Virus record (IMG/VR): IMGVR_UViG_3300033515_000006
Span: 1 to 55,467 of that record
Reading direction: 5' to 3' (one strand)
DNA length: 55,467 nt
DNA from: a virus
Taxonomy: Duplodnaviria; Caudoviricetes
Shown: in pieces, positions 13,838 to 30,900 of the stretch
Layout of the letters: each line of letters opens with the position of its first letter
Position numbering within the stretch: position 1 is the stretch's first letter
Translations under genes and position numbers: made by a program
Notes under the pieces: generated by a model
Told to the model about the DNA's origin: nothing
Seen by the model: the letters and a program-made list of their open reading frames with translations, nothing else
Database searches by the model: none

Positions 13838-15768
13838 TGGCAAATAGATTTGATAACGGTTCAATTTCAGCATATACACCACAATCAATGCAAGAACTTG
13901 CATTCGTTCCACTTATGAAACGACAAAAGCACGATGATATGGAAAAAAGTTTAGCAGAATTAAGTGCTATTGCTACAGATCCATTAAATGAACATCGTGA
14001 AAAAGCTTTACAATTAAAAAATGAATTAGAATCTAAACTTGGTAATTTATCTGGTGATCTTGCTTCAAGAGGTATTGATTCAATTGGTAAAGAAGCTTTT
14101 TATAAATTACAAAAAGAAAGAAATGATTTGATTGCACCTACTGGAGAAATCGGTATTATAAATGCAGCTAAAGTTGCTGAAGCTAAAGCTAAAGAAGACT
14201 TTATGAAAAATGCGGATAAATCATTTGGACAAAATGTTTTAGAACAAAAATGGTTAGAACATCGTCAAAAATATGCAGACATGAAAGGTCGAGATAAAGA
14301 CGGTAATATTATAAATATTAGTAATTTAGGTTCTCCAAAATATGTAGATTTAGATACAGGTATTAGAGATGTATTAAGTACTCTTGGTCATACAACTAGA
14401 GAAAAACTTTTAAATTCAGGATTATCTTTCAAAAATACAGAATATGGTCCAGTAATGGTTAATTCTCAAGGTAGTGTTGTTACTAAAACTAATGATGAAC
14501 AATTAAATAATGCATTAAACGCTTTAAAAACTAGATTTATAGATAAAACAGGTGAAGGCAGAATTAGTAGAGATTTTGAAGGAAGAACTACTGATGAAGA
14601 TTTAAATTATATAAACAATAGAGTTTTAGGTGCTAAAATATTTGAACAAAATAAAGATTATAAAACTAATTACGATAGAATATCTACTGGAGATGGTAAT
14701 GGAGATGGTAAAAATGGAGGAGCTACACCTTTAATTTCTATTCAAAATGAAATTCAAAGTAAAGAATTTGCAAATCAAAAATATAGTGATAATTTAAAAG
14801 AATATAAAAGATTATCTTCTATACCTATAGATAAAAGAACTGAAGAAGATAATGTAAAATTAGAATTAATAAAAAATTTACAAAAAGATGTTGATGAAAA
14901 ATTAAAACAAACCAATGTTTATAAACAAAATCAACCAAAAGTTCAAGCATTTGATTCTAAAATAGATCCTTCATATAGAAACTTTATTCAAAATGCAGAT
15001 AATATGTCTGCATCTGAATATGATAAAGAAATTGAAAATATAACTAAAAAAGAACTTGCAAAAATTAAAACAACTAAAGGTTTTGTTAGTGGTAGAGAAG
15101 GTATTGTAAGTATAAATGTTAGAAAAAAAGTAAATGATTTATTAAATCAAAGAAGAGAAATTTATAAACCGATAACTGAAGCAAAAAATAAATTGACTGC
15201 TTTAAACAATCGTCAATTTTATCATTATGCATTAGCACCTATTACTGAAAAAGAACAAGGTCAATATCAAAATTTAAATAATAATTTAGCAACTGCTGTT
15301 AAATCAAGTCCTTCTGCATTATCTAATTTAGGTTTAATAGAATCTGTAGATTTAGCGAATGGTTCTAAAAAATATAAATTAACAGAAGAACAAAGAAATC
15401 AAATTCAAACATTACTTTATAATTCAGATCGTAAAAATATTAGATTAGAATCTGTTTCAGAAAAAGGACCTGGAGGTAAACCACAATTAAGAATAGCATT
15501 TACACCAAATGAAGATGATGATGTAGATTTAGCAGGTGTAAACTGGTTTGGTAAAAATTCAGATAATTTAAATAATAAAGAAATATATCTTAATTTAGCT
15601 GTAAATAATTTAACCAATAAAAAAGCAGGTGGTCCAGATATAAAAAATATTGTAGGATTAATTGTAAATTATATAGGTGAAAGAGGTGAAGCTACTGAAA
15701 ATGGTACTACCGAAGGATATGATATTGCAAAATCATTTATTAATAATGCTTACGGAGTAAACGATTAA
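13837..15768 (+). CDS. Virion cargo protein 2
   Basis: Helical, Cys-free, coupled by TAATG overlap; synteny. Confidence 0.6.
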   Translation: MANRFDNGSISAYTPQSMQELAFVPLMKRQKHDDMEKSLAELSAIATDPLNEHREKALQLKNELESKLGNLSGDLASRGIDSIGKEAFYKLQKERNDLIAPTGEIGIINAAKVAEAKAKEDFMKNADKSFGQNVLEQKWLEHRQKYADMKGRDKDGNIINISNLGSPKYVDLDTGIRDVLSTLGHTTREKLLNSGLSFKNTEYGPVMVNSQGSVVTKTNDEQLNNALNALKTRFIDKTGEGRISRDFEGRTTDEDLNYINNRVLGAKIFEQNKDYKTNYDRISTGDGNGDGKNGGATPLISIQNEIQSKEFANQKYSDNLKEYKRLSSIPIDKRTEEDNVKLELIKNLQKDVDEKLKQTNVYKQNQPKVQAFDSKIDPSYRNFIQNADNMSASEYDKEIENITKKELAKIKTTKGFVSGREGIVSINVRKKVNDLLNQRREIYKPITEAKNKLTALNNRQFYHYALAPITEKEQGQYQNLNNNLATAVKSSPSALSNLGLIESVDLANGSKKYKLTEEQRNQIQTLLYNSDRKNIRLESVSEKGPGGKPQLRIAFTPNEDDDVDLAGVNWFGKNSDNLNNKEIYLNLAVNNLTNKKAGGPDIKNIVGLIVNYIGERGEATENGTTEGYDIAKSFINNAYGVND

Positions 15769-15770
15769 AT

Positions 15771-18700
15771 ATGAGACCAAGTATTAATGATTTAATGAAA
15801 AGAGCTGCTGCTGGTTCTTATGATGAAAAATTTAAAAAAGAAATGTCAAATAATATATTTGACAAATATTCACAAAGAGAAAGTTTTGATTTTGATTTAA
15901 CAAATCAAGATTATTTAAAAGGAGATGAAAACCCATATACATATAATATGGGTTTAAATGAAAATGCAGAAGATCCTTTTAATGAAATTAGAGCAACTAA
16001 TCAGTCTGGAGTAGAACAATTAGGTTTAGGGCTAGTTAGAGCTACTAATAAAGCAGCAACAGAAGTGGCTAAACTTGCACCTATTGTATATGGTGTAGGT
16101 AAAGCTATTTTTGAAGATAATGAAACTTCTGCATTAGAAGATATATTTAATAATGAAGGTATTAAAGCTTTAGATGAAATGAGTCAAAAGATTAATACTG
16201 ATTATTTACCAGTATATGTTAAAGACTCAGTTAAAAATGGAACCTTAATGGATAATTTATTATCTACTTCATTTTATGCAACAGAAGGAGCTGATGGTAT
16301 TGGTTTCATGGCTTCAATGTTTGCACCTGGTATGCTTTTAAGTAAACTTTCTTTAGGTTCTAAACTTATAGGAGCTATGAGTAAATCTAGTAAAATGGCT
16401 AAAATGCTAGAAACTACAAATGGTGGTATGAAAGCGTTAGGTAAATTAGGATGGACAGCTAGAGATATAGATTCTAAAGTATCTGTATTATTTAACTCGA
16501 TGATAGAAGCTGGTGCTGAATCTAAAGGAACTCAAGATGCTTTAAATGGTGAAAAACTTAATGAAATTGAATTATATAAATCTAAAGGATTAAGTCAAGA
16601 ACAAGCTGAAGAAATATTTAATCAAAAACATCCTGATTGGGATAATCAAGTTGCTTCTGCAATGAAAGGTGATTTCTGGATGCAGATGCCAATGTTATTA
16701 GGTACAGGTTCCATGATGCATAAAGCTATTTTTGGTAAAGCTTTAGATAAAGTTGAAAAAACTGTAGAATATGGTTTAAAAGGTAGAGTTGGTAGTATGA
16801 CTAAACAATGGGGTAAAGCAACTTTATCTGAAGGTTTTATTGAAGAAGCTGGACAATCAACTTTAGAAAATTACTATACTAAAAAAGCTTATGAAGGTAA
16901 ATTAGGTAAAGGCTTAATAGGTGATGTAAATATAGGTGATTTAACAAAAGAATATATAAATACAGTTTCTTCTGTTGAAGGTGGAAAAGCAATATTTTTA
17001 GGTGCTTTAATGGGAGGTCCATTTATGTCAATGGAAGCTCGTAGAGAACATCTTAAAGGTTTAAAAGACACAAACAGTATTACGAATGGTGTTAAATCAT
17101 CTATTGATGATTATAATACAATTAAAGAAAATGATATTTATGAAACAGATCCTAAAGATCCTACAAAACCTTTGTTTAAAAAAGATGAAAATGGTAATAT
17201 TACAAGTGAAAAAATTATAAATCGAGAAAAAGCTTTAAAAGTTGCTGAATCGTTAAAAAATATTGAAGATGACGATGCTTTATATGATGAAGCTATTAAA
17301 TCTGACGATATTGAATTACAAAAGTTTATTCAAAATAGAAATATTTTAAAATTAATCGCACCTGCAATTCAAAATGGAAAATTAGGTTTACAAATTTTAA
17401 AAGAAGAGCTTGAACAAGCTCTTAAATTTACAGATATTTCTGAAGCTGATAAAAATTCAAAAGATGAAAATAATACTAATAAAAAATTAGTAGAAACCAT
17501 ATTAGCAAAAGCAGAACATCTTCAAAAACAAAATGAAAAGTTTAAAGATTTTTCTCCAGATATTATTAAATTAGATGATCCTAGAACAACTAAAGAATTA
17601 AATGAAGAATATTTAAATCATTTAAATTCTAAGTATATTGAAACAAAATCATTACAATATGATGCTGAAAATAATTTAAAAGAATTAAATAAGAAAAGAG
17701 ACAATATATTAGACGAATTAGGTTTAGATAAAGGTTTACAAATTGAAGATGAAATTGCGACAAATAAAGAACAAAGTTCTTCATTATTAAAACAAGTTAG
17801 TGATAAAATTAGAGAAACTGAAAAAGAAGTAAGTAAATACAAAAAAGATATTAATGAATTATGGGAAAATAAAGATTTAATAAATAAATCTTTTAAATCT
17901 TACATTAATGAAAAAGAAAAAAAACAAAAACAAACTTCTGAAGAAAATGTTCAAAAAACTGATGAAATTAATAGTAATATTAAATCAGCAACTACTGTTG
18001 AAGAATTAGATAAAATTAAACCTAATGAATATACTGCACAACAATTTAATCAAAAACGTGAAGAATTAGAAAAAGGTAAAATAATTGAAAGAGAAAATGA
18101 AATTGCTGAAATAATACCTTCTACACAAGTTAAACAAGTTTTAAAATCAGAACGTGAAGAATTAACTGATCATATGACTAACGAGAGGTATAGTGTATAT
18201 GAAGGTAATCCTATTGAATTTATTAATAAAGATAGTGATGGTAATTTACTTTATAAAACTAAAAATGGTCAAAAAATTTTATTTGTAGACAAAATTAATA
18301 AAATCGAAGAAACAACTGTTGATGATATTGTAGAAGGTTCTGCGAATGATTTTAAAGTTGTAGACCCTAAAATAGTTTCTGATGGTACTGTTAAAGATGA
18401 TGGTAAATCACCTGGAAGTGTTAAAGGAAATAAACAATATGCTGACTATCTTTTAGAAAGTAGAGATAAAACAGGAGATACTGTTACATTTACTGTAAAT
18501 AGAAGTCAATTTGTTAAAGATAAAGATTCTTTAGAAGCAATTAAATTATATGATAAACTATTAAAGGATGAAAAATTTTCAGCTACAAATGAACAATTAG
18601 AATATTTAATTAAACATTTACCTATACAGTTTAATTATAATAATGGTTCTAGTTCTTTCTCATCACACGGTGGAACTTTAAATAGTAAATTAAGAACTTC

Positions 18701-20606
18701 TATTATTAATGCATTACAATCAGGTATTAAATTAGAAAACATACAAAGTGTAGTTACAAATCAAGCAAATGCTGATTTCAATAATCAAATTGTAGATAAT
18801 AAACCAGCCGTTAATAATGTATTAGATATTGCTGAATTTAACGGAGATACTAAAAATTTAGTATTATATCATATAAATACAGATGGTAAATTTATAGTTG
18901 TTTCAGAAAAACAAGAAGATTTTCAAGGTAGTCATAAAGTTAATACAGATTTATCAGGTAATATATTTGTTGTAATGTCACATCCTAAAGGATATAAAGT
19001 TGCTGCTAAATTAAATTCAAATAAATTAAACATTAAACAATCTGAAGGTTTAGCTTTATTGTATAAAGAACTAACTAAATCAAAAAATACTGAAATAAGA
19101 GAACAAGTTTTAGATAATTTAGAAGACGACGAAATTAATAATTATGTAAAATCTAAAATATTAAATCTTTTAAGTAATGAAATTAAATTATTAGGAGGTA
19201 ATCCTAATAATATTTCTATTGATGAAATGATTAAATTATTAGTTTTAGAAAACAGTAGTAAAGATTCTAATAAAAGTATTGAAATAGGGATTGATGAAAA
19301 CGGTAATCAAACAGTTAAATTTAATAATAGTGAATATAATTTAGAAAATGGTATTGAAAATTTTGTTAAAGATTTAACTGAAAATAAAAAACAAAATGTT
19401 ATTACTATTGAAACAGATGCTACTAAAGTTGGAGATAAAGGAATTACATTTAAAAATCAAGCTTATTTAAAGTATTTATTTGATAACAGAATAGTTTCTA
19501 CAGATATTAACACTAATCCTGAAGAAGGAAACTTTAAAACAGCTTCTAGTGCTACAGAACAAGGTAGTGAAGTATATATCAGATCTGCTGTTGAAAGTAA
19601 AAATACAACTGCTGTATTTGTAAATCAAAAAACTGAAATTAAACGTCAATCTGAATTAGAAGCTAAAAAAGCTGATATAGAAGAGGATAAATTTAATAGA
19701 GAGTTTTCTCAAACAATAGACCAAATAAACAACTTTTTTACTAACACATTAGGATTATCTATAAAGTTTGATGGAAGTGGCAGAAGGAAATTAGATAATG
19801 GTAAAGAAGTAGTAACTTATGAAATCACTATTTATCAAAATGGTAAAGCAATAGGAAATACAGGATTTAAAATAGTAAATGGTAAAATTGAAATAAGTCT
19901 AACTGAAATAAATGAAGAATTACAAGGTAAAGGTATAGCATCTGTTTTATATCAGGATATAAATAACGCTTTACAACAATTAGGTTATGGTGTATTACAT
20001 TCTGATACAACGTTTTTAGAAGATTCTCGAAAACAAAAAACATTTTTAATTGTAGATGGTAAAGAACTTTCTTTAGACGAAACTTCAGAGTTTCTATTAA
20101 GTTTAGAAGACCCTCTTGAGGATTTAGAGAAATTAAAAGAAGAAGGTAGAGTACAAGAAATTAAAAAAGTAAAACCTGGCGAAAAGCTTTGGCAAAGTTT
20201 AGAAAGAAAAGGATTAGCTGAAAAATTAGAAAATGGACAATATAGATTTATCAACACTAAATATGATGCAGAACTAAAAGTATTAGAAAGTGAAAATAAT
20301 TCAGAAAATATTAGGAATAATGAAAATAATTCCGTATCTTTGCCAAATAACGTAAAAATAGAAAATGAAATGGATATTCCTAACACACAAGCTAACGTAG
20401 ATTATAAAGAAGCAATTGATAAAATTATTTCTGATAATAAAATGACTGTTGATTTACAAAAAAATATTGATATATTAGCTAAAAATATAGAAATGAGAGA
20501 TTCTGAAGATTTTAAAACTAAATCTGAAAAAGTTCAAAGTAAAATTTTAGAGAATATTAAAAAAGCAAATATTGAGATGCCTCAATTAATTAAAAACTGT
20601 GGATAA
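15771..20606 (+). CDS. Giant virion cargo protein with C-terminal GNAT-like insertion
   Basis: N-terminal hydrophobic helices, coiled coils, and LQGKGIASVLY acetyl-CoA motif near the C-terminus. Confidence 0.65.
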   Translation: MRPSINDLMKRAAAGSYDEKFKKEMSNNIFDKYSQRESFDFDLTNQDYLKGDENPYTYNMGLNENAEDPFNEIRATNQSGVEQLGLGLVRATNKAATEVAKLAPIVYGVGKAIFEDNETSALEDIFNNEGIKALDEMSQKINTDYLPVYVKDSVKNGTLMDNLLSTSFYATEGADGIGFMASMFAPGMLLSKLSLGSKLIGAMSKSSKMAKMLETTNGGMKALGKLGWTARDIDSKVSVLFNSMIEAGAESKGTQDALNGEKLNEIELYKSKGLSQEQAEEIFNQKHPDWDNQVASAMKGDFWMQMPMLLGTGSMMHKAIFGKALDKVEKTVEYGLKGRVGSMTKQWGKATLSEGFIEEAGQSTLENYYTKKAYEGKLGKGLIGDVNIGDLTKEYINTVSSVEGGKAIFLGALMGGPFMSMEARREHLKGLKDTNSITNGVKSSIDDYNTIKENDIYETDPKDPTKPLFKKDENGNITSEKIINREKALKVAESLKNIEDDDALYDEAIKSDDIELQKFIQNRNILKLIAPAIQNGKLGLQILKEELEQALKFTDISEADKNSKDENNTNKKLVETILAKAEHLQKQNEKFKDFSPDIIKLDDPRTTKELNEEYLNHLNSKYIETKSLQYDAENNLKELNKKRDNILDELGLDKGLQIEDEIATNKEQSSSLLKQVSDKIRETEKEVSKYKKDINELWENKDLINKSFKSYINEKEKKQKQTSEENVQKTDEINSNIKSATTVEELDKIKPNEYTAQQFNQKREELEKGKIIERENEIAEIIPSTQVKQVLKSEREELTDHMTNERYSVYEGNPIEFINKDSDGNLLYKTKNGQKILFVDKINKIEETTVDDIVEGSANDFKVVDPKIVSDGTVKDDGKSPGSVKGNKQYADYLLESRDKTGDTVTFTVNRSQFVKDKDSLEAIKLYDKLLKDEKFSATNEQLEYLIKHLPIQFNYNNGSSSFSSHGGTLNSKLRTSIINALQSGIKLENIQSVVTNQANADFNNQIVDNKPAVNNVLDIAEFNGDTKNLVLYHINTDGKFIVVSEKQEDFQGSHKVNTDLSGNIFVVMSHPKGYKVAAKLNSNKLNIKQSEGLALLYKELTKSKNTEIREQVLDNLEDDEINNYVKSKILNLLSNEIKLLGGNPNNISIDEMIKLLVLENSSKDSNKSIEIGIDENGNQTVKFNNSEYNLENGIENFVKDLTENKKQNVITIETDATKVGDKGITFKNQAYLKYLFDNRIVSTDINTNPEEGNFKTASSATEQGSEVYIRSAVESKNTTAVFVNQKTEIKRQSELEAKKADIEEDKFNREFSQTIDQINNFFTNTLGLSIKFDGSGRRKLDNGKEVVTYEITIYQNGKAIGNTGFKIVNGKIEISLTEINEELQGKGIASVLYQDINNALQQLGYGVLHSDTTFLEDSRKQKTFLIVDGKELSLDETSEFLLSLEDPLEDLEKLKEEGRVQEIKKVKPGEKLWQSLERKGLAEKLENGQYRFINTKYDAELKVLESENNSENIRNNENNSVSLPNNVKIENEMDIPNTQANVDYKEAIDKIISDNKMTVDLQKNIDILAKNIEMRDSEDFKTKSEKVQSKILENIKKANIEMPQLIKNCG
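20311..20342 (+). promoter_or_regulatory. Intragenic -33/-7 promoter upstream of the vRNAP gene
   Basis: TTAG, 20-nt spacer, TATCTTTG (20335-20342), about 260 nt before ATG 20606. Confidence 0.55.
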
Positions 20607-23600
20607 TGAGTTGTATAGTATTAAATAATGGATTAGAATCATCGTTACATAAACAATTGATTGAAAAATATGGACAAGAACTTGCAGATAAAAAAATGCA
20701 AGGATTTATGTCTGATTCTTTTAAACAAAAGTTTGGTAATTATCAAGAATTAATTGATAATAAATCTGATTTTATTCCGCCAAATTTTAAAAATAGATTA
20801 AATGATAAATTTGAACCATTGTTGTTGGAAGATAACAATGGTTTTTATTATATAGATAAAAATTATCAAAATCAATATATTGACGTTGCTGATTCAGAAT
20901 TATTTAAATTATTTAAATCTGAACGAGCTATTAATTCATTAGTTGAAATTTTAGCAAAAGATCATTTAGATAATATTGGTGTAACAATGAATTTTGATAC
21001 ATTAGGTATTGAAGGTAAAGAATCTAAAATATTATTAAAAGATTCTATTTTAAATAAAATATCAAGTTTATCTGATGAAACAATGGATTCTGAAGATTTA
21101 AATATTTCAACTAATGGTTTAATATTAGATGATATTTTAAGTAACGATAAAGCATTAAAACAATTAGAATATAAAGTTAATGAGTTTTATAAAGCTAAAA
21201 AGTTTATTTATGCTGAAGAATTTCAAAATGAAGAATTAGACGATACTATACTAGGTCAACGAGATAGTATAACTATGAAATCATCGTTTGAAACAAATCC
21301 TAAAGCTAAAGTAGGAGCTATTGTAAAATTAAGATTGTCTTTAATTAAAGATCCTAAAAACATTGAATCTGATTTTGGACAAGCAATGTCTGTTGATTAC
21401 AATGTATTATATAACAAATTAACACATATTTTATCTGATAATTATATTACAATTGATAAAAATCAAGATAAACATGTAATTGAAGATGCTTTTACAAGTA
21501 TAATTAACTTATTAAAAGTACATGCCCCACATATTAGTGAAATTGCAAATCTTGTAGATTATTTATCTAAGTTAGATGTTGAAACTAATGATGTAGAAAG
21601 TGTTGAGGGTATTCAATTATATCAATTAAAAGCAGGTATTGTAAGGGCGTTTAATCTACAGAAAAACAATTTTGATACAAAAGTATTACATGAAACTAAA
21701 GTTGTTGTAGAGAAAGGAATAACTGAAGAATTTACAAGACATAATGGAACTATAGGTACACGTAATATTACAAATGATGTAATTGGTTCTGAATATAAAT
21801 ATGAATCTGATGATGCTAGTACATTAATTAATAATAAAAAATCATTTTTAGTTAATTGGGGATTATCATTTAAAGAATATTTTGGATTTCCTGAAAAAGT
21901 TACTGAAGTTTTTAATAAAGATAAAGTAGCAGAATTAAATAAAATAATTGAAGGAATTAAACAAGTTGAAAATAGTAAAACAACTTCTTTATTAAAAGCT
22001 GAAAGTATTTTAAGACTGTTATCAACTATTGGTATAGATATTTCAAATGAAGTATTTAATCGAGCAATGAATAATAATAAAGATAATGTTTTAACAGATG
22101 TTAAATTAAATGAACATTATGATAATTTTGTATTAAAAACAAAAGAATCTTTTATTAATTCAAGAGATAACTTTCAAAACAATAAAGAAATATTTAACAA
22201 TTATTGGTTTAATCAATTAGCAAAAGCAGAATTGTTTTATAGTTCACAAGGAGATGAATCATCTATTAATCAAGCAGGTAAAAATAAATATTTATTTTCA
22301 ACACCTTCAGGTATTAGACAAACTATTTACACTTGGAAGAAAAATCCACAATTATTTGAAGATTTTTATAATGATTTAGGTGTGTGGGAACAAAACTCTA
22401 AAATATTTAAACATTTATTAGCTTTAGATGTTCCTAAAAATGAAAGATTAACTAAAAGAATTGAAAGATTATCTAAGTTAGATGTTGATATTTTTAATAA
22501 TTTTACAAATAGTTCAACTAAAACAGTTGATGGTAAAGTTAAAACTGTTAGAGAATCAGCTAAAGATGTAAAAGAATTATCTAAAAATGAAGATATTAAA
22601 ATATTTGTAAATGATATTTTAAAAAGTCAATTAGGTAAAGATTCATTAACTAAAGGTAGAGGCACAACTGCACCAGGTAAATCAACACAAGTTGGTTTAA
22701 TACATGATTTCTTTTTAGGTAATAATGTGTCTTATAAAGCAAATGGTGAAATTAATATTGATAATGCTGTAGATGTAGTTTATGATTATTTTTTAGGAGA
22801 ACTTAATAGAATTAATGAAGCTCATAAATCTATCAATGATAAAAGTATTAAAGGACAATCTAAATTAAAAGCTTTTTATCATTTTAAAAATGGTGAAGAA
22901 ATATTTGACAATGAAGGTAATTTAATATTAGATAATTTAGGTAATACTTTTAAATCACAATTAATGCCTGATTTAAGTTATGATAAAATAGCCAAATCAA
23001 TGGATAATGTGATATATAAAAAATATCCTTTATATAACACCAATGGTGAAGTATTGTTTGAAAATTTAGAATATAATAAACCTGAAATTCACGAATTAAT
23101 TAAAAAAACTTTAATTGATAAACTAAATGAATTAAAGCAAGATTTATTAGAAGCTAATTTGTTTGAAAAAGTTGGTGAAAATTCTTATATAAATAAAGGT
23201 GTTGATACTAGGATTATTAAAAAATATTCTGATAATTATAAAATAACTAATGAAAGCTTAAATAAACTTTTAGGAGATGTTTTAATAAATGGATTAGTTA
23301 ATCAAATTGAATATTCTAAAATGTTTGCAGGAGATGTCGCTTATTACAAAAATCCTGTAGATTATATTAAACGTATTGGATCAACTATTTCTGATGGAAC
23401 TCGTGAATACATTACGAAACATAATGCTACATTTAATGTAGGTGTTATTGATTCTGTTGAATTTAGAGAACCATATTTAGAAGCATTTAAAAACCTTATA
23501 CAAGATGATCCTAATTTACTTAAACTTTGGGAAGAAGATGTAAACGCGGCAGATGCTCAAGCTTGGATTACACCTAAACGGTGGAAATCATTATTACTAG

Positions 23601-26600
23601 GTTGTAGTATGTTTACACCTGAACATCAAGTAGTTTATGAAAAACTAATTGGTAAAAATAAAGAACCTTTAACTAAAGATGAACTTAAAATAGTAGCACA
23701 ACCTCTAAAAGGTCATTATTTTATGCGTGAAGAAAAAGGTGAACCAGTATATTTAAAATACTCACAAGCTGTCTTAACCCCTTCATTAATTAAAAGCACA
23801 AAACTTCAAGATTTATATGATTTTATGAAATACCATAAAGTTGATGAATTAGTCACATTTGATGCGATTAAAGTAGGTTCACCAAAATCAACTAAATTAC
23901 ACGATGAATTAGGTGGATTGAATGTTAGAGATGAATCTGGTAAAATGAAGCCTTTAAACGTACTTAAATTAGATTCTAGAGGGTGGAAATTACAACAAGA
24001 TTTACCAACTAAAACATATAAAGAAACAGATACAGGTTCTCAATTATTAAATAACATGTTAGTATTGTTAGCACATATGATTAATAGTGATATTAAACAA
24101 TTTGAACATAACGGTCAACAATATTCTGCTTTAGAATATGCTAAATTAATAGATAATACTTTAGGTGATTTATTAGGAATAGGATTAAATGATTTTTTTA
24201 ATGAATTTAGTATTGATAAAAACAGTAAAGAAATTAAAGATTCAGGTAAACTTTATAATATATTGGCTGATGAATTAAATTCTAGGGAATATTCAGATGA
24301 AGTAATTAAGGCATTACGTGCTAAATTATCTATTGTGGCTTTACCAGGATTTGATACTAAATTACAAAGTATTTTTAGTTCGATTGTTAAAGATAGAACT
24401 GTTAAAATAAAAACTAATGGTGGGTCAATGATTCAAATGGCTAATTACGGTCTAACTAAAGAAGAAGCTGATGCAAAAGATAACAATATTAAATGGTCAC
24501 CACTTGTTAAATTAGGAGATACCGTACAACCTTATTCTTACGTTAAGAATGAAGATGGCACACCTAAAATAAATATATTTGGTAAAAAAATAATTATTCC
24601 AGAACAAGTATTATTATCTGGTAGTTTCATTGCTAAATATATTCCTGATTATGAAACTAAAAGTCCTGAAGAATTATTTGGAACTTTAAATCCTGAAACA
24701 GGTAAATTAGAAGGTGGTTTAATAGATAATAGAATTTTAGAAAATATAATAGGTTATAGAATACCTAATCAAGGACCTTCTTCTAATGGTGCAATGCAAA
24801 TTGTAGGTATATTACCATCAGGTAATGGTGATACAGTTGTAGCATTTGCAGGTATTACTAAGAAAACAGGGTCAGATTTTGACATTGATAAAATGTATAT
24901 AATGTTTCCTAACTACAAAGAAAATGAAGGAAAATTAGTTTATACTGAATCTAATTTAAATAGTAAGGAATCTTTACAAAATAAATTAATTGAATTATAT
25001 AAAGGTTTAATATTACAAGAAGATAATATTAAAATGGTTATGACACCATTAGATTTTCCACATTTAAAAGACGATGCTTTAAATATAGCACCAACTGCTA
25101 AAAAAGGTAATTTAGATGTATTTAGTGCAATACAGGATATTAAAACTAAATATTCATTTTTAGATGGTTTATTGGGTGTGGGTATGGAAGCTAATGCTGC
25201 AAATGATTATGCTAGAGGTACAATGGCTAATGTTTATTACGAAGATGTTAATTTAGGTACTAGAAGTAATCAAGGTGAATATTTTTCAGTTAAAAGAAAA
25301 GATAAATTTGAAGATGTTCAACATACACATTTTGATAGGATTAAATCTCAAAGTTTATCTAAACAAGAATTAAAACAATATCAAGAAAGTTATAATAATA
25401 GAGTTTTAAGTGAAAAAGATAAATTATCCGATACTATTTTAAAAACCTATGAAAACTTTAACATTTCAGATAATATTTCTGCATTAATGAATGCTTTTGT
25501 AGATATTGCTAAAGATCCATATATTACTAATGTAAATTGGAATGCGATGACTACAGGTGTTGGTAATATGTTATTAAGAGGTGGTGTTCATCCATTTGTA
25601 ACAATGTCATTTATTGCCCAACCTATTATTAAAGAATATATTGATTTTAATAAACAATATAATACTTTAGATAAAGCTGAACAAATAGCAAATACTAAAG
25701 ATGCTTTTAAAATATTTAAAGTTTCAGAATTATTAAAAAATGATACTTTTTTAATTAGAACATTGGAAGATGGTACTAATATTGAAATGAGTTATAAACA
25801 ATTATATAAACTTGTTGCTACTGGTAATAGTGCTTTAGAATTTTTATCAGATAAAGATTTTGCAACTAAAAAAATGATTGCTAAAATTGAAAATCAAACA
25901 GGTATTACTAAATTAACCAATGACGATATTAATATAATTTTAAATAATACTAAAGATATTATAGAAAATAATCGAATATTTTTTGATAAAAAATATGTAA
26001 ATATTTTAGATACAGAAATTGGTACATTACGAGAAAATATATTTAAAAATGATATTAAATTTCAAGCTAAAGTTTTAGATAATCTATATAAATTTATGGG
26101 TGATGCTAAAAAACTAAAAGCTAGTATGGAAGCGTCAGGGCATGATATTAATGGCTATGGTAAAAACACTACGTCATTGTTAATGGTGTTAAATAAAATT
26201 GAAAACGTTTCACAAAAAGGAGTTATTAATTATAATAGTAAAAATATACATGAAGATGACGGAACTACTAAATTATTAGGACACAGACAAAATAATTTAT
26301 ATGAAATTAAAAAAGTGGTTCAAAATAACCCTACTAGTTTTCCATCAGCAACACCTTATGTGTGGAATACATTTAATAAAATCTCTCAAGATATATATGG
26401 TACTAATTTAGAAAATGAAGAATTAGCTAATAGTTTAGATAAAATATTTAAAACATATTTAATGTCTTCATTTGAACCATTTAATAATACTTTAGAAGAA
26501 AACCAAGAAATTTTTGATAATTTTCCAAATACATTTTTAAAATTTAAAAATAATGAAGTTAATCGTGAAAGATATGCAATTATTAAAGAACTTAGAATTA

Positions 26601-27955
26601 TTGAAGATAAAGGTAAAAAGTTTATAGGTTTGGATAATAAACAAAATTCTAAAGAATATACTGATAAAATGATTAATTCTTGGAGAGAGTTAATGCAATA
26701 TCATCCAGATATAGCTGAAGATTTAATTAAATATTCATTTATTAGTTCAGGGTTTAATAATTCTCCAGTTAGTTTTCATCAATATATACCACCAAATTTC
26801 TTTTTTAAATATGATTTTAATCAACATGTGGATAGTTTTACTAAAAGATTTGACAATGATTCAATAGATGAAAATTTTATAAATCATTTTTATTTATCTA
26901 ATCTAGATAATGCAAGTGTTGTTAAAAATGTACAATCATTTATGGAATTAAAATCAACAGAACAAGAATTTCCACAAACTAAAGAAGTTACTGCTTTTGA
27001 TAAAAAAGTATTAGGTAGATTTATTAAAGTTAATTATAAACAAGAAAATGAAACTTATTCTATATTTCATAAAAGTTTAGGAGTAGATGAAAAAGGTAAA
27101 AATATTTATACTAAATTTATACCAGTAGAAGGTGGTTTTGCACGTATATCATCGATTGTAGGAGATAAACAAGTAGGTATTGTACAACATAATTATAATT
27201 CAGATTTTATTAGCTTAAAACCCGCAGAATTAAGTGAAACATCTTTAAATATTTTAAATACTAAATATATGGAAAATAATTTAGAACAAACACAATCTAT
27301 TGATGAAGAAGAAGATATTGTAAATAAAGAAGAATTAACACAATTTACTGAACCTGAAACTAAACAAGAAGTTAAATCTGAAGTTAGTAATAAAATTTAT
27401 AATGAATTAGGTAATAAAACTAAATCTAAAAGTGTAGTTATTAAATCTTGGAGTGAATTAAAAGATACAACTAAAGCAATAACACCTGAAGGTGTAGTTT
27501 CAACAAGAATTAAAAATACTAATGAACACTTCGGTAATCCTTTTAGTCATGATCCTGCAGGCAAAACTCAAGGATTAATTAAAACTGAAACTATACAAGA
27601 AGCTGTTGAAAAATTTACAGATTGGGTAATTAATTCTAAAGATGAAAGAGCTAATTGGATTAGAGAACAATTAAAATCTGGAGAATTGAAAGATAAACCA
27701 ATTTTATACTATAAAGAACTTGGAGAACCTTCTCATGCTACGGCTTTAGATTATTTAATTAATAAATATAATTGGAAAACTAATGAATTTATTTTAAATA
27801 AACCACAACAATTATCTTTATTTGATCAACTCGAACAAGATAAACAACGTTGGGAAGAAATTAAAAATAAATGGATTGAATCTGGTAGAACTGAAGCTGA
27901 TTTTAATTCTATGAATAATGAAGAAAGAGAACATATAATTAAAAATTGTTTATAA
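20606..27955 (+). CDS. Virion-packaged single-chain RNA polymerase (phi14:2 gp66-like)
   Basis: Catalytic GSDFDIDK (DFDIDK at 24875-24892) preceded by GYRIPNQG; also DAQAWIT; 2449 aa. Confidence 0.92.
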   Translation: MSCIVLNNGLESSLHKQLIEKYGQELADKKMQGFMSDSFKQKFGNYQELIDNKSDFIPPNFKNRLNDKFEPLLLEDNNGFYYIDKNYQNQYIDVADSELFKLFKSERAINSLVEILAKDHLDNIGVTMNFDTLGIEGKESKILLKDSILNKISSLSDETMDSEDLNISTNGLILDDILSNDKALKQLEYKVNEFYKAKKFIYAEEFQNEELDDTILGQRDSITMKSSFETNPKAKVGAIVKLRLSLIKDPKNIESDFGQAMSVDYNVLYNKLTHILSDNYITIDKNQDKHVIEDAFTSIINLLKVHAPHISEIANLVDYLSKLDVETNDVESVEGIQLYQLKAGIVRAFNLQKNNFDTKVLHETKVVVEKGITEEFTRHNGTIGTRNITNDVIGSEYKYESDDASTLINNKKSFLVNWGLSFKEYFGFPEKVTEVFNKDKVAELNKIIEGIKQVENSKTTSLLKAESILRLLSTIGIDISNEVFNRAMNNNKDNVLTDVKLNEHYDNFVLKTKESFINSRDNFQNNKEIFNNYWFNQLAKAELFYSSQGDESSINQAGKNKYLFSTPSGIRQTIYTWKKNPQLFEDFYNDLGVWEQNSKIFKHLLALDVPKNERLTKRIERLSKLDVDIFNNFTNSSTKTVDGKVKTVRESAKDVKELSKNEDIKIFVNDILKSQLGKDSLTKGRGTTAPGKSTQVGLIHDFFLGNNVSYKANGEINIDNAVDVVYDYFLGELNRINEAHKSINDKSIKGQSKLKAFYHFKNGEEIFDNEGNLILDNLGNTFKSQLMPDLSYDKIAKSMDNVIYKKYPLYNTNGEVLFENLEYNKPEIHELIKKTLIDKLNELKQDLLEANLFEKVGENSYINKGVDTRIIKKYSDNYKITNESLNKLLGDVLINGLVNQIEYSKMFAGDVAYYKNPVDYIKRIGSTISDGTREYITKHNATFNVGVIDSVEFREPYLEAFKNLIQDDPNLLKLWEEDVNAADAQAWITPKRWKSLLLGCSMFTPEHQVVYEKLIGKNKEPLTKDELKIVAQPLKGHYFMREEKGEPVYLKYSQAVLTPSLIKSTKLQDLYDFMKYHKVDELVTFDAIKVGSPKSTKLHDELGGLNVRDESGKMKPLNVLKLDSRGWKLQQDLPTKTYKETDTGSQLLNNMLVLLAHMINSDIKQFEHNGQQYSALEYAKLIDNTLGDLLGIGLNDFFNEFSIDKNSKEIKDSGKLYNILADELNSREYSDEVIKALRAKLSIVALPGFDTKLQSIFSSIVKDRTVKIKTNGGSMIQMANYGLTKEEADAKDNNIKWSPLVKLGDTVQPYSYVKNEDGTPKINIFGKKIIIPEQVLLSGSFIAKYIPDYETKSPEELFGTLNPETGKLEGGLIDNRILENIIGYRIPNQGPSSNGAMQIVGILPSGNGDTVVAFAGITKKTGSDFDIDKMYIMFPNYKENEGKLVYTESNLNSKESLQNKLIELYKGLILQEDNIKMVMTPLDFPHLKDDALNIAPTAKKGNLDVFSAIQDIKTKYSFLDGLLGVGMEANAANDYARGTMANVYYEDVNLGTRSNQGEYFSVKRKDKFEDVQHTHFDRIKSQSLSKQELKQYQESYNNRVLSEKDKLSDTILKTYENFNISDNISALMNAFVDIAKDPYITNVNWNAMTTGVGNMLLRGGVHPFVTMSFIAQPIIKEYIDFNKQYNTLDKAEQIANTKDAFKIFKVSELLKNDTFLIRTLEDGTNIEMSYKQLYKLVATGNSALEFLSDKDFATKKMIAKIENQTGITKLTNDDINIILNNTKDIIENNRIFFDKKYVNILDTEIGTLRENIFKNDIKFQAKVLDNLYKFMGDAKKLKASMEASGHDINGYGKNTTSLLMVLNKIENVSQKGVINYNSKNIHEDDGTTKLLGHRQNNLYEIKKVVQNNPTSFPSATPYVWNTFNKISQDIYGTNLENEELANSLDKIFKTYLMSSFEPFNNTLEENQEIFDNFPNTFLKFKNNEVNRERYAIIKELRIIEDKGKKFIGLDNKQNSKEYTDKMINSWRELMQYHPDIAEDLIKYSFISSGFNNSPVSFHQYIPPNFFFKYDFNQHVDSFTKRFDNDSIDENFINHFYLSNLDNASVVKNVQSFMELKSTEQEFPQTKEVTAFDKKVLGRFIKVNYKQENETYSIFHKSLGVDEKGKNIYTKFIPVEGGFARISSIVGDKQVGIVQHNYNSDFISLKPAELSETSLNILNTKYMENNLEQTQSIDEEEDIVNKEELTQFTEPETKQEVKSEVSNKIYNELGNKTKSKSVVIKSWSELKDTTKAITPEGVVSTRIKNTNEHFGNPFSHDPAGKTQGLIKTETIQEAVEKFTDWVINSKDERANWIREQLKSGELKDKPILYYKELGEPSHATALDYLINKYNWKTNEFILNKPQQLSLFDQLEQDKQRWEEIKNKWIESGRTEADFNSMNNEEREHIIKNCL

Positions 27956-30900
27956 ATGAAAAATTGCGTAAATTTTAATAGTCCAGATGTAGTAAAATTA
28001 GCAGGAGAACTAAATGTTTCTCCTGCTGTTGCTGCAGCAAAAATAGGACTATGGCAAAGTAAAAATAATATAGAAGATAGATTTCCTACTAAAGATGAAT
28101 TATTTCAATCTAATGAAGTTAATACAACTTTAAAAGCTGTAGATATATTACAATCTGATAAAGCTAAACAAGTATTTGAAAAAGGTAATAAAAATGGTTG
28201 GGATTTAAATAAAATCTTAACTGAACTTCAAATTCCTAAAGAACAAAAACAATTAATTTTAGATTTAGGTGTTACAGATAGAGAACAAATAGCTTTAGAA
28301 TTAGCTTCTAATTATAGTTATAGTGTTAAAATTGATATTACTAAAGAAAATATTAGAAGTGGAGTTAAAGAAATAGAAGAAGATAATTATGATACTTTAT
28401 ATTCTCCTTCTGAAAATAAATATTATTCTTACAGTGAAGAATTAGGTTGGATGCAAACTGATGAAAATAATAGAAATCAAGAATTTGATATTAATCCACC
28501 AGAAGATGCCAAGCCTTATCAAAAAAATACAAGATTTGAAGATAATTATGTTGAATTAAATAGTTCACATTACTCAAATCTTACAGTTCCAGGTGGTACT
28601 AATTACACAGAGAATGAAATATCTACTCCTTTAATTACACCTAGTATTAAAGGTCATGCTCAGTTTGCTACAGATAATGGTATAGGATGGTTTAGAAGTG
28701 ATGATGCTTTAGTTAATAATGGATTAACTCAACAAGAATTAGATAATATTCCGCAAGAATATTTAGAAGAATCTTTACATAATACTAAAACTCGTAGAAT
28801 ACTAGAAGTACAATCTGATTTATTTCAGAAAGGTAGAGATAAAGAATGGTTATCTAGAGAAATGGATAGTTTAACTCCTGAAGAAGTAGCTAATGAACCT
28901 GAATGGTTAAGACCTATCGGAACAATTGTTAAAAGTGATAGTAAAAAGAATGCATTTTTAAATTTATTAATAAAAGACAATAACTGGGTTACATTTTTTG
29001 TTAAATCTATAATTCAAGACTCTCAAAAGAAAGGTTATGAAAAAGTATTATTTCCTAGTGGAGATACAGCTAGTAAAGTTGAAGGTCATAGTACTTTAGA
29101 AGAGTTTAAGAAACAGAAAGAAGATAGGATTAAAGAACTTGAAAAGCGAAAAAAAGAAGGTACAGAAACAGTAGAAAGATATTTATTAGATGATAATAAT
29201 GAACCTTATTCAAGTGTTAATGTTAAAATAGATGAAGAAATAAATCAACTTAAACAGGAACTTGAAAGAGTAGAAACAGAAGGATTTGGCGCTTTAAAAC
29301 CTATTTATAATTTTTATGAGAATACTGTAACTAATATTCTTAATAAAACATATGGTAAAGATAATGTAAAAGTTATTACAGATGAATATGGTAATACTTG
29401 GAATGAAGTTACTTTAGATAATAAAAGAGATGAATCTACTATTTTTATGAAACAAGTAGATATGTCTAATATCATAGATGATTCTGTAGAAACAATATTT
29501 CCAGATACTAAATCTGAAACAATTGAACAATCTGATGATAATCAAAATCATAAATTATTGTTTGGTGATGAAAATATTAAAACATTATCTGCTACTGAAG
29601 TATTAAAAAATTTAATTTCAAGTGATACATTTAATAACTCTAAAGATGAAGGTTTCTTTTTAGAAAAAATGATGAATTTGTTAAATAAATCTGGAGCTAA
29701 ATTAAAATTAATTACAGATGTTAATGATATTAATTATCAAAAATTTGATAGTAAAACAGTAATGTTATATGATGCTATTACAAATACAATATATGTAAAT
29801 GATACATCTTTAAATAATTTTGATAAACAAACTTTAGCTAGTGCCTTTATACATGAAGTAGTGCATAGTACTACATTACGTGCTTATTTTGCACCAAGAA
29901 CATTTGAAGAAAGAGAATTTAGAGATTTTATAGACAAATCATTTTTTCAATATAAATATTTATCTGAAAAAAGAGATAGTGAAGGTAATTTAATGTATGG
30001 TTTTACAAATCAAGCTGAGTTTATCGCTGAAATCTATTCTAACCCTGCTTTTAGAGCTGAAATTGAATCTATTGATAAGAAATGGTTTGATAAATTTATT
30101 GATGCTGTAAGACGCTTGTATGAAATGATTAAAAATGGTTTTAATACTGATTTAATTAAATCTGCTGTTTTATTTAATATTGTTGATGAATTTGCAACTA
30201 AACAAAGTGTTAATTATAAAGGAACTTTAGTTAAAGATCCAAGATTTGAAAGATTTGGTAAAAGTGAATTTGCTAAAAAAGTTGAAGGTGATAAAATTAG
30301 AAATCTTGATGAAAGATTAGAAAATTTAATTAATATTCAAAAAGATAATATTTCACAAATTATTCGTAGAGCACAATCTAATAATAAAAAACATGGTGTA
30401 AAAAATAAAGAATTTATAAATGTTGTTAAAAAATTAGAAGAAGAATTACACACTGCTGCTCAAACAGATAAATTAAAAGCAATTAATACATATGTTGATT
30501 TTATGGTTTATCAAATCGATAAAATTAAAAATTTAATGGAAAAGTCTACAAATAAAACTGAAACATTAGATATTATTGAAAGATATAAAACATATTTAGG
30601 GGCTAGTGATTTATTAAAACCAGTTACAGATACGTTAGTTGATACCGATATTAAAGATTTATCAGAAGAACAACAACTTTATAATAAAGAAATACTTCGT
30701 AAAATAGGTGAAGTTGGTGGATATTATAATATATTACAAGCTGAATTTACAGCACATATTAATAAAGAATTAATTAATGAATTAAATGATCCTTATTATT
30801 CTGAAATTGTAATTCAAGAATTTAGAAATACAATAGGTAAAGATTATCCAAAAGATAGTGAATTATCTAAAAACGAATGGATTAATCAAGAAGTTGTAAA

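Follow-up and report, generated by a model that had tools for sequence, protein, structure and literature searches.

The window analysed here is a 55,467-nt stretch of a Caudoviricetes genome (IMG/VR record IMGVR_UViG_3300033515_000006). Its gene order is that of the Crassvirales structural and cargo block, with a muzzle protein (Pfam crAss_MUZ, E = 2.8e-200), cargo protein 1, cargo protein 2 and the polymerase-associated giant proteins, as in phages phi14:2 and crAss001. The cargo genes, and the catalytic motif that served as a landmark for break positions, are as follows.

10880-13837, plus strand: cargo protein 1 homologue (985 aa, no Cys; Pfam crAss_CARG1, E = 2.4e-26)
13837-15768, plus strand: cargo protein 2 homologue (643 aa, no Cys, N-terminal N-R-F motif; homologues in loci L002-L004 and L007)
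15771-20606, plus strand: chain protein A (1611 aa; single Cys is the penultimate residue, 1610)
20606-27955, plus strand: chain protein B, virion RNA polymerase by similarity (2449 aa; Cys 3, 1000 and 2448)
24875-24889, plus strand: DFDID catalytic motif of B
27956-33469, plus strand: chain protein C (1837 aa; single Cys is residue 4)

The cargo protein 1 homologue is putative ejected cargo and stands outside the proposed Cys-linked chain. The gene for cargo protein 2, whose homologues in the four loci named also contain no Cys, lies directly 5' of the gene for A. B aligns with phi14:2 gp66 of known structure (PDB 6VR4; phmmer against 6vr4_A, E = 5.9e-152, query 46-1443, chain 56-1394) and with phi14:2 g066 (tblastn, E = 3e-112), and carries the DFDxD motif as T-G-S-D-F-D-I-D-K-M-Y (window 24866-24898), which is invariant in the polymerase alignment. 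Judging by these matches, B is a Crassvirales virion RNA polymerase of the phi14:2 gp66 type. A has counterparts in phi14:2 gp67 and crAss001 gp47, and C in phi14:2 gp65 and crAss001 gp49.

The five cargo ORFs contain 5 Cys in 7,525 aa (0.07%), a depletion of the kind seen in Schitoviridae-type ejected proteins, well under the average of the proteome; among the other 26 ORFs of at least 150 aa in the window, most have about 0.5-3% Cys and three have none. Four of the five Cys stand within 1-4 residues of the ends at which A, B and C face one another, and neither outer end, the N-terminus of A or the C-terminus of C, has one. The chance that at least four of five Cys placed at random in A, B and C would fall into four 10-residue windows at the facing ends is about 1e-8. 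The five codons are:

20598-20600, plus strand: TGT, A Cys1610 (tail Cys of the A|B junction)
20612-20614, plus strand: TGT, B Cys3 (head Cys of A|B)
23603-23605, plus strand: internal B Cys1000
27947-27949, plus strand: TGT, B Cys2448 (tail Cys of the B|C junction)
27965-27967, plus strand: TGC, C Cys4 (head Cys of B|C)

These positions bear out the preliminary description, which had counted five Cys, placed four at the gene junctions and the fifth inside the polymerase, and found the outer ends without Cys. Its further remark, that Cys is avoided in ejected proteins of the N4 type, has been published (PMC11445570). A 'KNC' motif that it took to be shared is common to three of the window termini but is not conserved across relatives. 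Cys1000 is not conserved either: in L034, a locus that has the B|C junction stretch in common with the window, the internal Cys is offset by 12 alignment residues.

Facing cysteines across Crassvirales

We surveyed 105 IMG/VR loci (GC 24-60%; 27 of them TAG-recoded) together with phi14:2 and crAss001, counting junctions by a first-ATG rule in 10-residue windows and collapsing redundancy at 80% identity. The polymerase unit is encoded as a single polypeptide or as two to four. At each protein-level split, the upstream piece bears a Cys followed by 0-8 residues and the downstream piece a Cys at position 2-7, and the chain away from the facing ends is nearly Cys-free. At the B|C junction both sides carry Cys in 88 of 91 readable cases. 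The tabulation of Crassvirales Cys had been set beforehand as a check, and the terminal pairs proved conserved, in 65 of 68 non-redundant B|C junctions. The three exceptions (L016, L050, L052) are all accounted for: L016 becomes regular if C starts 1 nt past the stop codon (M-V-C), while in L050 and L052 B is interrupted and the Cys pair is carried by the last B piece and C. At A|B, an N-terminal Cys is found in 30/32 complete B ORFs whose catalytic motif lies less than 2300 aa from the N-terminus, and a C-terminal Cys in 23/25 upstream A proteins.

The outer ends are bare, with Cys at none of 81 C-termini of the last protein and none of 61 N-termini of the first; in control ORFs of the same loci, Cys occurs at 24/196 (12%) of termini at each end. 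Plus-strand ORFs of at least 450 aa in the loci contain 0.11% Cys versus 1.44% in control ORFs. The facing-end Cys pattern is hence confirmed as general across Crassvirales. Irregular cases are the A protein of L031, with its Cys 31 residues from the end, and the first B piece of L052, in which a second Cys lies 287 residues from its end. Several lineages hold 3-20 internal Cys in their chain proteins; Cys avoidance is thus not absolute and mispairing is possible. For L014, an alternative M-A-S-C start of B was noted.

Both cultured phages, in which A, B and C each have a direct homologue or counterpart, show the same four terminal Cys as the window. In phi14:2 these are Cys 1797 of 1797 in gp67, Cys 3 and 2179 of 2180 in gp66, and Cys 3 in gp65; the phage record annotates all three as virion proteins by MS/MS. 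crAss001 gp47 has only Cys 2339 of 2341, gp50 has Cys 5, 1334 and 2404, the last being irregular at 8 residues from the end, and gp49 has Cys 5; all three occur in virions (PMC10172136). The words 'cystein' and 'disulfide' are absent from the accessible part of the phi14:2 preprint (10.1101/2020.03.07.982082), as is 'cysteine' from that of the crAss001 paper, where disulfides are limited to tail and portal-vertex proteins (PMC10172136). The literature searched yielded no description of facing terminal Cys in cargo proteins.

Facing cysteines follow the protein break

Fused forms of the polymerase-associated proteins are known (10.1101/2020.03.07.982082; PMC10172136). In the fusions of the surveyed loci, the Cys of the joined ends are absent. 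Where the catalytic motif lies at least 2300 aa from the N-terminus of B, so that A is fused, an N-terminal Cys occurs in 0/25 ORFs; direct BLAST homology to separate A proteins was detected in 23 of 55 fused ORFs. B-C fusions (the L017-20 group, L085 and L096) combine B and C homology in a single ORF of 3868-5177 aa with 0 Cys. Among sister loci, L041 is fused and L043 is split, the latter with the Cys pair. Conversely, L046 has a lineage-specific extra link with Cys at 4 and 1166, of which residues 575-1155 match contiguous, Cys-free sequence in L010 and L040. The break positions themselves differ, as the catalytic motif lies ~1270-1480 or ~2010-2270 aa from the N-terminus of B depending on lineage; residues 303-526 of B in L021 align with 1255-1468 of A in L004. 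Independent pairs on a tree (FastTree, with long branches) all point in the expected direction (A|B, five on starred branches and seven on all; B|C, three), each pair test being weak by itself (median p 0.06 and 0.25).

Gene layout has no such influence. No Cys accompanies a gene break in L004, L027 and L032 that resembles a group I intron, and Cys pairs are kept despite gaps of ~0.36 kb to ~6 kb between the genes (L003, L011, L022, L023, L053). In crAss001 the gp47 gene lies on the opposite strand to those of gp50 and gp49. The facing Cys therefore follow the protein break, independent of gene layout. The junctions of the window are tight (1 nt overlap, 0 nt gap) and short words near the Cys codons repeat across them, which would suit a nucleotide-level or translational feature that does nothing for the protein, be it coupling, a ribosome hop from one Cys codon to the other or a scar of recombination. 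Such a feature is refuted by the opposite strands in crAss001 and by the gaps in L003, L022 and L023; moreover, the pattern holds from 24% to 60% GC with TGT and TGC alike, and extends to distant representatives of the head family described below. We regard this explanation as almost certainly wrong.

Breaks, outer ends, fusions and layout together strongly support the core of the earlier proposal, namely that the facing Cys are partners which connect the three proteins in gene order. We favour, with a probability of roughly 0.6, the reading that terminal inter-chain disulfides stand in for the missing peptide bond, by which the split proteins would form one thread. Partner assignment lies beyond sequence alone, and the Cys might instead pair within homodimers, with another virion protein, or between the two ends of B closing on itself. 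N4 packages about four copies of its polymerase (PMC13434306), so several copies may be present in crassviruses too. Pairing with such other partners would leave unexplained why both Cys are lost jointly on gene fusion, why the outer ends have none and why a pair is gained at every new break, and we consider it very unlikely.

Junction modules and the chemistry of the link

At the B|C junction the Cys are embedded in short modules:

27797-27952, plus strand: B tail module (last 52 aa, ...EEREHIIKNCL, containing Cys2448)
27956-28123, plus strand: C head module (first 56 aa, M-K-N-C-V-N-F-N..., a widespread N-terminal family with invariant Cys)
27797-28123, plus strand: junction stretch of B tail, stop codon and C head (93% DNA identity to L034:14750-15076)

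The tail module is 92% identical to that of L034, with the remainder of B ~30% identical. The AF2 model of the head module (pLDDT 79.9) predicts helices at 10-19, 23-37 and 46-50. In the head family, the Cys and its N-terminal placement are kept in 150/150 of the best 150 of 917 cluster representatives. The residues preceding the Cys vary, with K/N favoured in tails (K in 37% at -2) and mostly S/A in heads. A split intein or trans-splicing element was rejected as a candidate: no Pfam domain occurs at the termini, where halves of a HINT domain would be expected, the fused forms are without Cys, the head Cys is at position 2-7 rather than 1, and the tails have 0-8 residues past theirs.

The modules raise the question of whether non-covalent docking of tail and head is the real link, the Cys being kept for a redox release switch or for interface packing. 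Each side has a conserved module of about 50 residues, the model predicts that the head folds into a helical domain, and tail and head have been exchanged together between the window and L034; adjacent DNA would, however, be co-transferred in any case. Furthermore, the Cys is the sole invariant residue other than Met over two unrelated head types and very diverse tails, and its distance to the chain end is far more constrained than any neighbouring residue. Docking as the sole link thus appears unlikely. In the disulfide reading, the same modules may dock the ends before oxidation.

No conserved His or second Cys was found within 6 residues of the junction Cys, leaving one invariant Cys at each facing end; because of this single thiol, the link, whose chemistry is read from sequence alone, is taken as a disulfide. 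The facing Cys could also be joined by a bridging metal, for example with two junctions sharing one Zn or an Fe-S cluster, or by other thiol chemistry, and the head-to-tail topology would be the same. This would fit all of the pairing evidence equally well, and bridging by a metal would be feasible under the reducing conditions of the cytoplasm and in anoxic habitats, both of which make a disulfide doubtful. Coordination by only two ligands is uncommon, though, and its sharing by two chains would depend on copy number; with a single conserved thiol per end, we think a non-disulfide bond improbable. Virion assembly takes place in the cytoplasm, which is reducing, and the anoxic gut is home to many of these phages; hence, oxidation of the Cys pairs is not guaranteed. 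Disulfides do form in crAss001 virions, in tail and portal-vertex proteins (PMC10172136).

A linked chain and its passage through the tail

If the facing pairs are disulfides, each would form between chains in the virion and tie the C-terminus of one protein to the N-terminus of the next, which would place A, B and C in the order and polarity of the fused forms. With side stubs of just a few residues, the linked chain would act as a single thread. The thread would exit through the tail, N-terminus first, and the bonds would then be reduced, or simply tolerated, in the cytoplasm. Transcription data argue that phi14:2 gp66 must be translocated (10.1101/2020.03.07.982082). The same preprint describes fused polyproteins as 'likely cleaved' into their components; if so, continuity of the chain may not be needed.

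In two-chain translocated toxins, a single disulfide keeps the chains together while one of them crosses a membrane unfolded; reduction in the cytosol then breaks this bond. The logic is that of the proposed crassvirus link, a likeness of mechanism without homology. In the toxins, unlike in the crassvirus chain, a single polypeptide is nicked to give the two chains, and the Cys lie away from the extreme ends. Among phages, N4 gp50 and DEV gp71, gp72 and gp73 are likewise a giant polymerase and co-ejected proteins that are almost Cys-free, which has been explained in print as a way to keep disulfides from forming during passage (PMC11445570). The N4-like polymerase is one chain of ~3,400-3,500 aa, with no terminal Cys described in the accessible part of the sources, whereas the crassvirus chain is split, with Cys exactly at the breaks. 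Inter-subunit disulfides are reported in purified crAss001 particles, in the gp57 dimer and the tail hub and ring proteins (PMC10172136); in contrast to end-to-end cargo links, these tail and portal-vertex bonds have a structural role and connect folded subunits of the shell or tail.

Tentatively, and with the odds somewhat against it, we extend the disulfide reading to a portable 'stitch', a cassette of ~330 nt comprising a Cys-ended tail and a Cys-headed N-terminus that moves between phages and positions. A giant ejected protein could then be cut almost anywhere and rejoined in the capsid as a disulfide-linked thread of 5,000-6,000 residues, which would pass the tail as a single molecule and separate, or not, in the cytoplasm. 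This would be a natural concatenation that compensates for gene fission.

A 2026 paper on N4 poses as an open question how podophages get folded proteins with masses of several hundred kilodaltons through a channel in the tail that is ~3-5 nm wide, and says that crassvirus ejection proteins still need work (PMC13434306). A covalent thread, if real, would explain the fixed exit order and 1:1:1 ratio of three separately made proteins, why Cys is otherwise purged from them, and why fused and split architectures interchange freely in this order. The link is directly testable in phi14:2 and crAss001. It also bears on the interpretation of proteomic and cryo-EM data on crassvirus cargo; the Cys-bearing terminal tryptic peptides could be missed because they are only 2-4 residues long in phi14:2. 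Lastly, proteins could be joined by means of the short tail and head pair, used as a small redox-reversible tag.

Cargo block of the window and its cysteines

The crassvirus structural and cargo block lies on the plus strand of the window at 6237-33469, in a 55,467-base fragment record with a GC content of 24.5% and an estimated completeness of 55%. Three consecutive giant cargo proteins, here called A, B and C, follow the smaller cargo genes.

Structural and cargo genes of the window, in block order
First in block, + strand: muzzle protein (Pfam crAss_MUZ, E 2.8e-200)
After the muzzle protein, + strand: cargo-1 homologue (Pfam crAss_CARG1, E 2.4e-26), 0 Cys
After cargo-1, + strand: cargo-2 homologue, 643 aa, 0 Cys
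15771-20606, + strand: A, 1611 aa, Cys 1610
20606-27955, + strand: B, virion RNA polymerase, 2449 aa, Cys 3, 1000 and 2448
27956-33469, + strand: C, 1837 aa, Cys 4

B matches the structure of phi14:2 gp66 (6VR4; E 5.9e-152) and carries its catalytic DFDID motif at 24875-24889; a PHROGs search found no family for the five cargo ORFs. Their translation yields 5 Cys in 7,525 residues, exactly as counted by eye in the preliminary description, which had also rightly noted that the outer ends of the A/B/C trio lack Cys. Most other ORFs of the window contain about 0.5-3% Cys, and three contain none. If Cys were distributed randomly over A, B and C, at least four of the five would fall into the four 10-residue windows at the facing ends with a probability of about 1e-8.

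Two minor features accompany the block. Within A, residues 1350-1408 (19818-19994) give a weak match to a GNAT acetyltransferase-like domain (PF14542, E 7.3e-5, 23.3 bits against a cut-off of 30). An N-terminal N-R-[YF] within the first eight residues is common to the cargo-2 homologues of the window (13837-13866) and of the relatives L002-L004, L007, L029, L033, L038, L041, L044, L054, L066 and L072; nearly all cargo-2 homologues lack Cys, and the one in L031 has a single Cys.

Paired cysteines at the junctions of relatives

Relatives were collected in two IMG/VR scans, with B as the first query and an alignment of the B catalytic core as the second. The resulting 105 loci (L numbers) span 24% to 60% GC and form 73 clusters at 80% identity of the B core; the cultured phages phi14:2 and crAss001 (L107) were added. 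ORFs were called mechanically (first ATG after a stop, + strand, at least 450 aa), and Cys at junctions and ends was scored in 10-residue windows. As its gene block is inverted, crAss001 was treated by hand. In an early tree comparison, the split or fused label of complete ORFs had been taken from the N-terminal Cys itself; for the later junction counts and the independent-pair test, it was redone from the distance between the B start and the DFDID motif. L004, L027 and L032 stand outside these motif-based tallies because their motif is split. TAG read-through is needed in 27 of the 105 loci, where the giant ORFs hold 11-64 in-frame TAG each and reach 4,000-5,000 aa once TAG is taken as a sense codon, a case of stop-codon recoding in the late genes (L055, L058, L061-L063, L066, L074, L076, L077, L079, L081, L082, L084, L086-L089, L091-L095, L097, L101, L102, L104 and L105).

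The facing-end Cys are conserved and paired in homologues. At the B|C junction, both sides carry a Cys in 88 of 91 readable cases (65 of 68 non-redundant). The misses are L016, in which an ATG 1 nt past the B stop gives M-V-C, and L050 and L052, in which B is interrupted after the motif and the Cys pair sits on C and the final piece of B. For A|B, the complete B ORFs whose start lies less than 2300 aa from the motif were counted, and 30 of these 32 show an N-terminal Cys. One of the other two is L014, for which the start used in the near-identical sibling L015 would give M-A-S-C. The second is L092, scored as a miss because it is the 80% cluster representative for itself and its siblings L081 and L088; it contains an in-frame TAA that the siblings do not have. 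Upstream, 23 of 25 A proteins end with a terminal Cys, the exceptions being L092 and L031, whose Cys lies 31 residues from the end. The neighbouring pair 500|493 in the pair listing for L003 is a chance neighbour and not a chain junction.

The Cys occupies positions 2-7 among 103 distinct heads (N-terminal ends of downstream proteins), with position 3 in 53, and is followed by 0-8 residues, most commonly one, among 97 distinct tails (C-terminal ends of upstream proteins). The codons used are TGT (190) and TGC (18). At the outer ends, none of 61 first chain proteins has a Cys within 10 residues of the N-terminus and none of 81 last chain proteins within 10 residues of the C-terminus. Among 196 control ORFs of the same loci, 24 have a terminal Cys at the N-end and 24 at the C-end; Cys content is 1.44% in control ORFs versus 0.11% in the big plus-strand ORFs.

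The pattern extends to both cultured phages. In phi14:2, the sole Cys of gp67 is its last residue (1797), the crystallised polymerase gp66 (2180 residues) carries Cys at 3 and 2179, and gp65 (1421 residues) has Cys 3; all three are virion proteins by MS/MS according to the GenBank record. The tryptic peptides at these termini measure just 2-4 residues, and early transcription of the phage is rifampicin-resistant according to its preprint. In crAss001, plus-strand gp47 has its sole Cys at 2339 of 2341, and its presumed partners gp50 (Cys 5, 1334 and 2404 of 2412) and gp49 (sole Cys 5) are encoded on the opposite strand. Because gp50-gp49 are inverted relative to gp47 (46119-64723), this phage lacks a co-linear order of the three chain genes. 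In L003, C starts about 6 kb past B, yet begins M-S-C, and gaps of 0.36-1.3 kb occur in L011, L022, L023 and L053. Opposite strands and kilobase gaps rule out any cause that acts on the DNA or during translation. The tight junctions in the window had first suggested a ribosome hop from one Cys codon to the other, or translational coupling of the two; this was rejected, since the pattern survives gaps of about 0.36-6 kb and opposite strands.

Fusions and shifted breaks

Judged from the sequences, the Cys track the break in the protein and not a particular gene or position. Where A and B are fused (motif at least 2300 aa from the start), none of 25 non-redundant ORFs has an N-terminal Cys. Direct BLAST homology to separate A proteins was found for 23 of 55 fused ORFs, as for L041, whose residues 163-1244 match the A protein of its sister L043 (E 1e-119). 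B and C share one ORF in three lineages (L017-20, L085 and L096, the last a complete fusion of 4730 aa), all with zero Cys. Break points also vary by lineage: from the B start to the motif there are about 1270-1480 aa in some lineages and about 2010-2270 aa in others, and residues 303-526 of L021 B align with the C-terminal part of L004 A. In L046 the chain has an additional link of 1167 aa, which bears Cys 4 and Cys 1166 and whose residues 575-1155 match contiguous, Cys-free sequence in the sisters L010 and L040. A break of another kind is found in L004 (12260-13207), L027 and L032, where about 945 nt are inserted at the DFDID motif of the B gene. Two hits in this stretch score 36 and 28 bits (E 2.8e-7 and 6e-5) against the group I intron model RF00028, below its gathering score of 50, and neither side of this intron-type break has a Cys.

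In a FastTree tree of the B core, the architecture given by motif distance switches seven times for A|B and three times for B|C. This provides five independent pairs for A|B on starred branches (seven on all) and three for B|C, a trait for which L050 and L052 were left out. In all of them the Cys changes in the same direction; singly, the pair tests are weak (median p 0.06 for A|B and 0.25 for B|C), and the tree has long branches.

Some loci deserve separate mention. The chain of L046 (2621-21719), termed four-piece (3890, 1167 and 1308 aa), has paired Cys at both junctions, and its middle link shows partial homology to the C-terminal 600 aa of the sisters' contiguous polymerase protein. In L049 (45-4568), A stops at a TAG and B starts 6 nt on in the same frame, so that read-through of one stop would fuse A and B. 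In L052 (7085-21356) and L050 (7328-22465), the break in the polymerase lies past the catalytic motif, and additional ORFs (1161 and 573 aa) separate the pieces; these ORFs have their N-terminal 65 aa in common and two Cys each, spaced C-x6-C. The extra ORFs of L050, L052 and L003 gave no Pfam match above cut-offs. The partner Cys in the first B piece of L052 lies 287 residues from the end.

Head and tail modules and a putative disulfide link

On either side of a junction, conservation extends over about 50 residues. The head pattern M-x(1-4)-C-[IVP]-N-x-[NK]-...-[ED]-[FW]-[KQ]-x-L is found at the N-terminal end of C proteins, or of B proteins in other lineages, and is internal in 0 of 29 local matches. 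A profile of the head matched 917 cluster representatives (E ≤0.001) among 1.84 billion proteins. In the best 150 of these 917 (P0001-P0150), the match begins at residues 1-3 in 146 and the Cys is kept in all 150, at position 3-6 in 147 and 3-4 residues after a Met in the remaining three. The approximately 50-aa Cys head (window 27956-28105) is a large unnamed family, found on B-type and C-type proteins, for which there is no Pfam model. AlphaFold2 predicts helices at residues 10-19, 23-37 and 46-50 of the window C protein (residues 1-80, mean pLDDT 79.9) and an extended Cys-bearing segment 1-9; a PDB fold search with this model gave no significant match (best E 0.75). By eye, a short helix-like motif, [ML]-[ST]-x-E-E-...-K-N-C, is common to the tails that pair with C-x-N heads, and a second head type (C, a hydrophobic stretch, G-x-x-S-x-L-[FY]) seems to occur on B and C proteins.

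The junction may also move as a unit. Window 27797-28123 and L034 14750-15076 are 93% identical over 327 nt, a span that holds exactly the final 52 codons of B, its stop codon and the 56 codons with which C begins, whereas the three giant proteins are otherwise only about 27-35% identical. This contrast suggests that the junction was exchanged as a unit, in what looks like a recent recombination event.

Functional coupling of the facing ends is very likely. We give a probability of about 60% to a disulfide-linked A-B-C chain, a mechanism that we infer throughout. The head-to-tail linkage proposed in the preliminary description is partly supported: Cys are paired across breaks and lost on fusion, and the chemistry of the bond is conjecture. 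An inter-chain disulfide at each junction would replace the missing peptide bond. With the A C-terminus joined to the B N-terminus and the B C-terminus to the C N-terminus, the order and polarity of the fused polypeptide would be copied. With short stubs the joint would stay thin, wrong links would be prevented by the lack of other Cys, and the chain might leave with the polarity proposed for gp45, N-terminus first. Such a chain would weigh about 600 kDa in phi14:2, as estimated from the lengths of gp67, gp66 and gp65, and about 690 kDa in crAss001, by the masses in PMC10172136. The crAss001 paper reports that disulfides form in crassvirus particles and proposes that cargo is partly unfolded and gp45 exits N-terminus first (PMC10172136).

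Head and tail sets contain no conserved His or second Cys near the terminal Cys. Together with one thiol per end, strict pairing and loss on fusion, this makes a disulfide the simplest link and a metal bridge between the facing Cys improbable. On the other hand, the cytoplasm in which virions assemble is reducing, and gut phages have an anoxic habitat, which argues against a disulfide. Neither sulfhydryl oxidase (PF04777) nor thioredoxin (PF00085) had a match in the window record; with the fragment estimated at 55% complete and PF04777 silent in the control genomes too, this negative is uninformative. Docking of the ends without a bond is about as improbable as the metal bridge. Co-folding of the B tail and C head (100 aa each, 9-row alignments, no controls) scored 0.28 against a mark of 0.32, a value that speaks neither for nor against a link. 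Further points against a linked chain are the exceptions L031 and L052, the 3-20 internal Cys in several gut lineages and the cleavage of fused polyproteins guessed in the phi14:2 preprint (10.1101/2020.03.07.982082). Other partners for the terminal Cys are less probable still, given the strict pairing. Two further origins were discarded: intein-like or autoproteolytic (no such domains, Cys not at position 1, fused forms without Cys) and a lipidation or prenylation signal (no signal peptide or lipobox, variable number of residues after the tail Cys).

Split and fused architecture, virion location and Cys depletion of ejected polymerases are already known, the last for N4-like phages (PMC11445570). 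In the article texts searched, which cover the phi14:2 study as a preprint, neither the paired terminal Cys of crassvirus cargo nor their link to protein breaks is described. The word 'cysteine' is absent from the searched text of the crAss001 paper (PMC10172136), whose extended-data tables on reduced versus non-reduced MS may bear on the claim, 'cystein' and 'disulfide' from that of the phi14:2 preprint, and 'cystein' from that of a 2026 N4 paper (PMC13434306). The proposed bond resembles a two-chain tether, in which a disulfide holds translocated chains, here in a Cys-depleted ejection module. The pairs would be unexpected to a specialist, and two cultured phages carry them.
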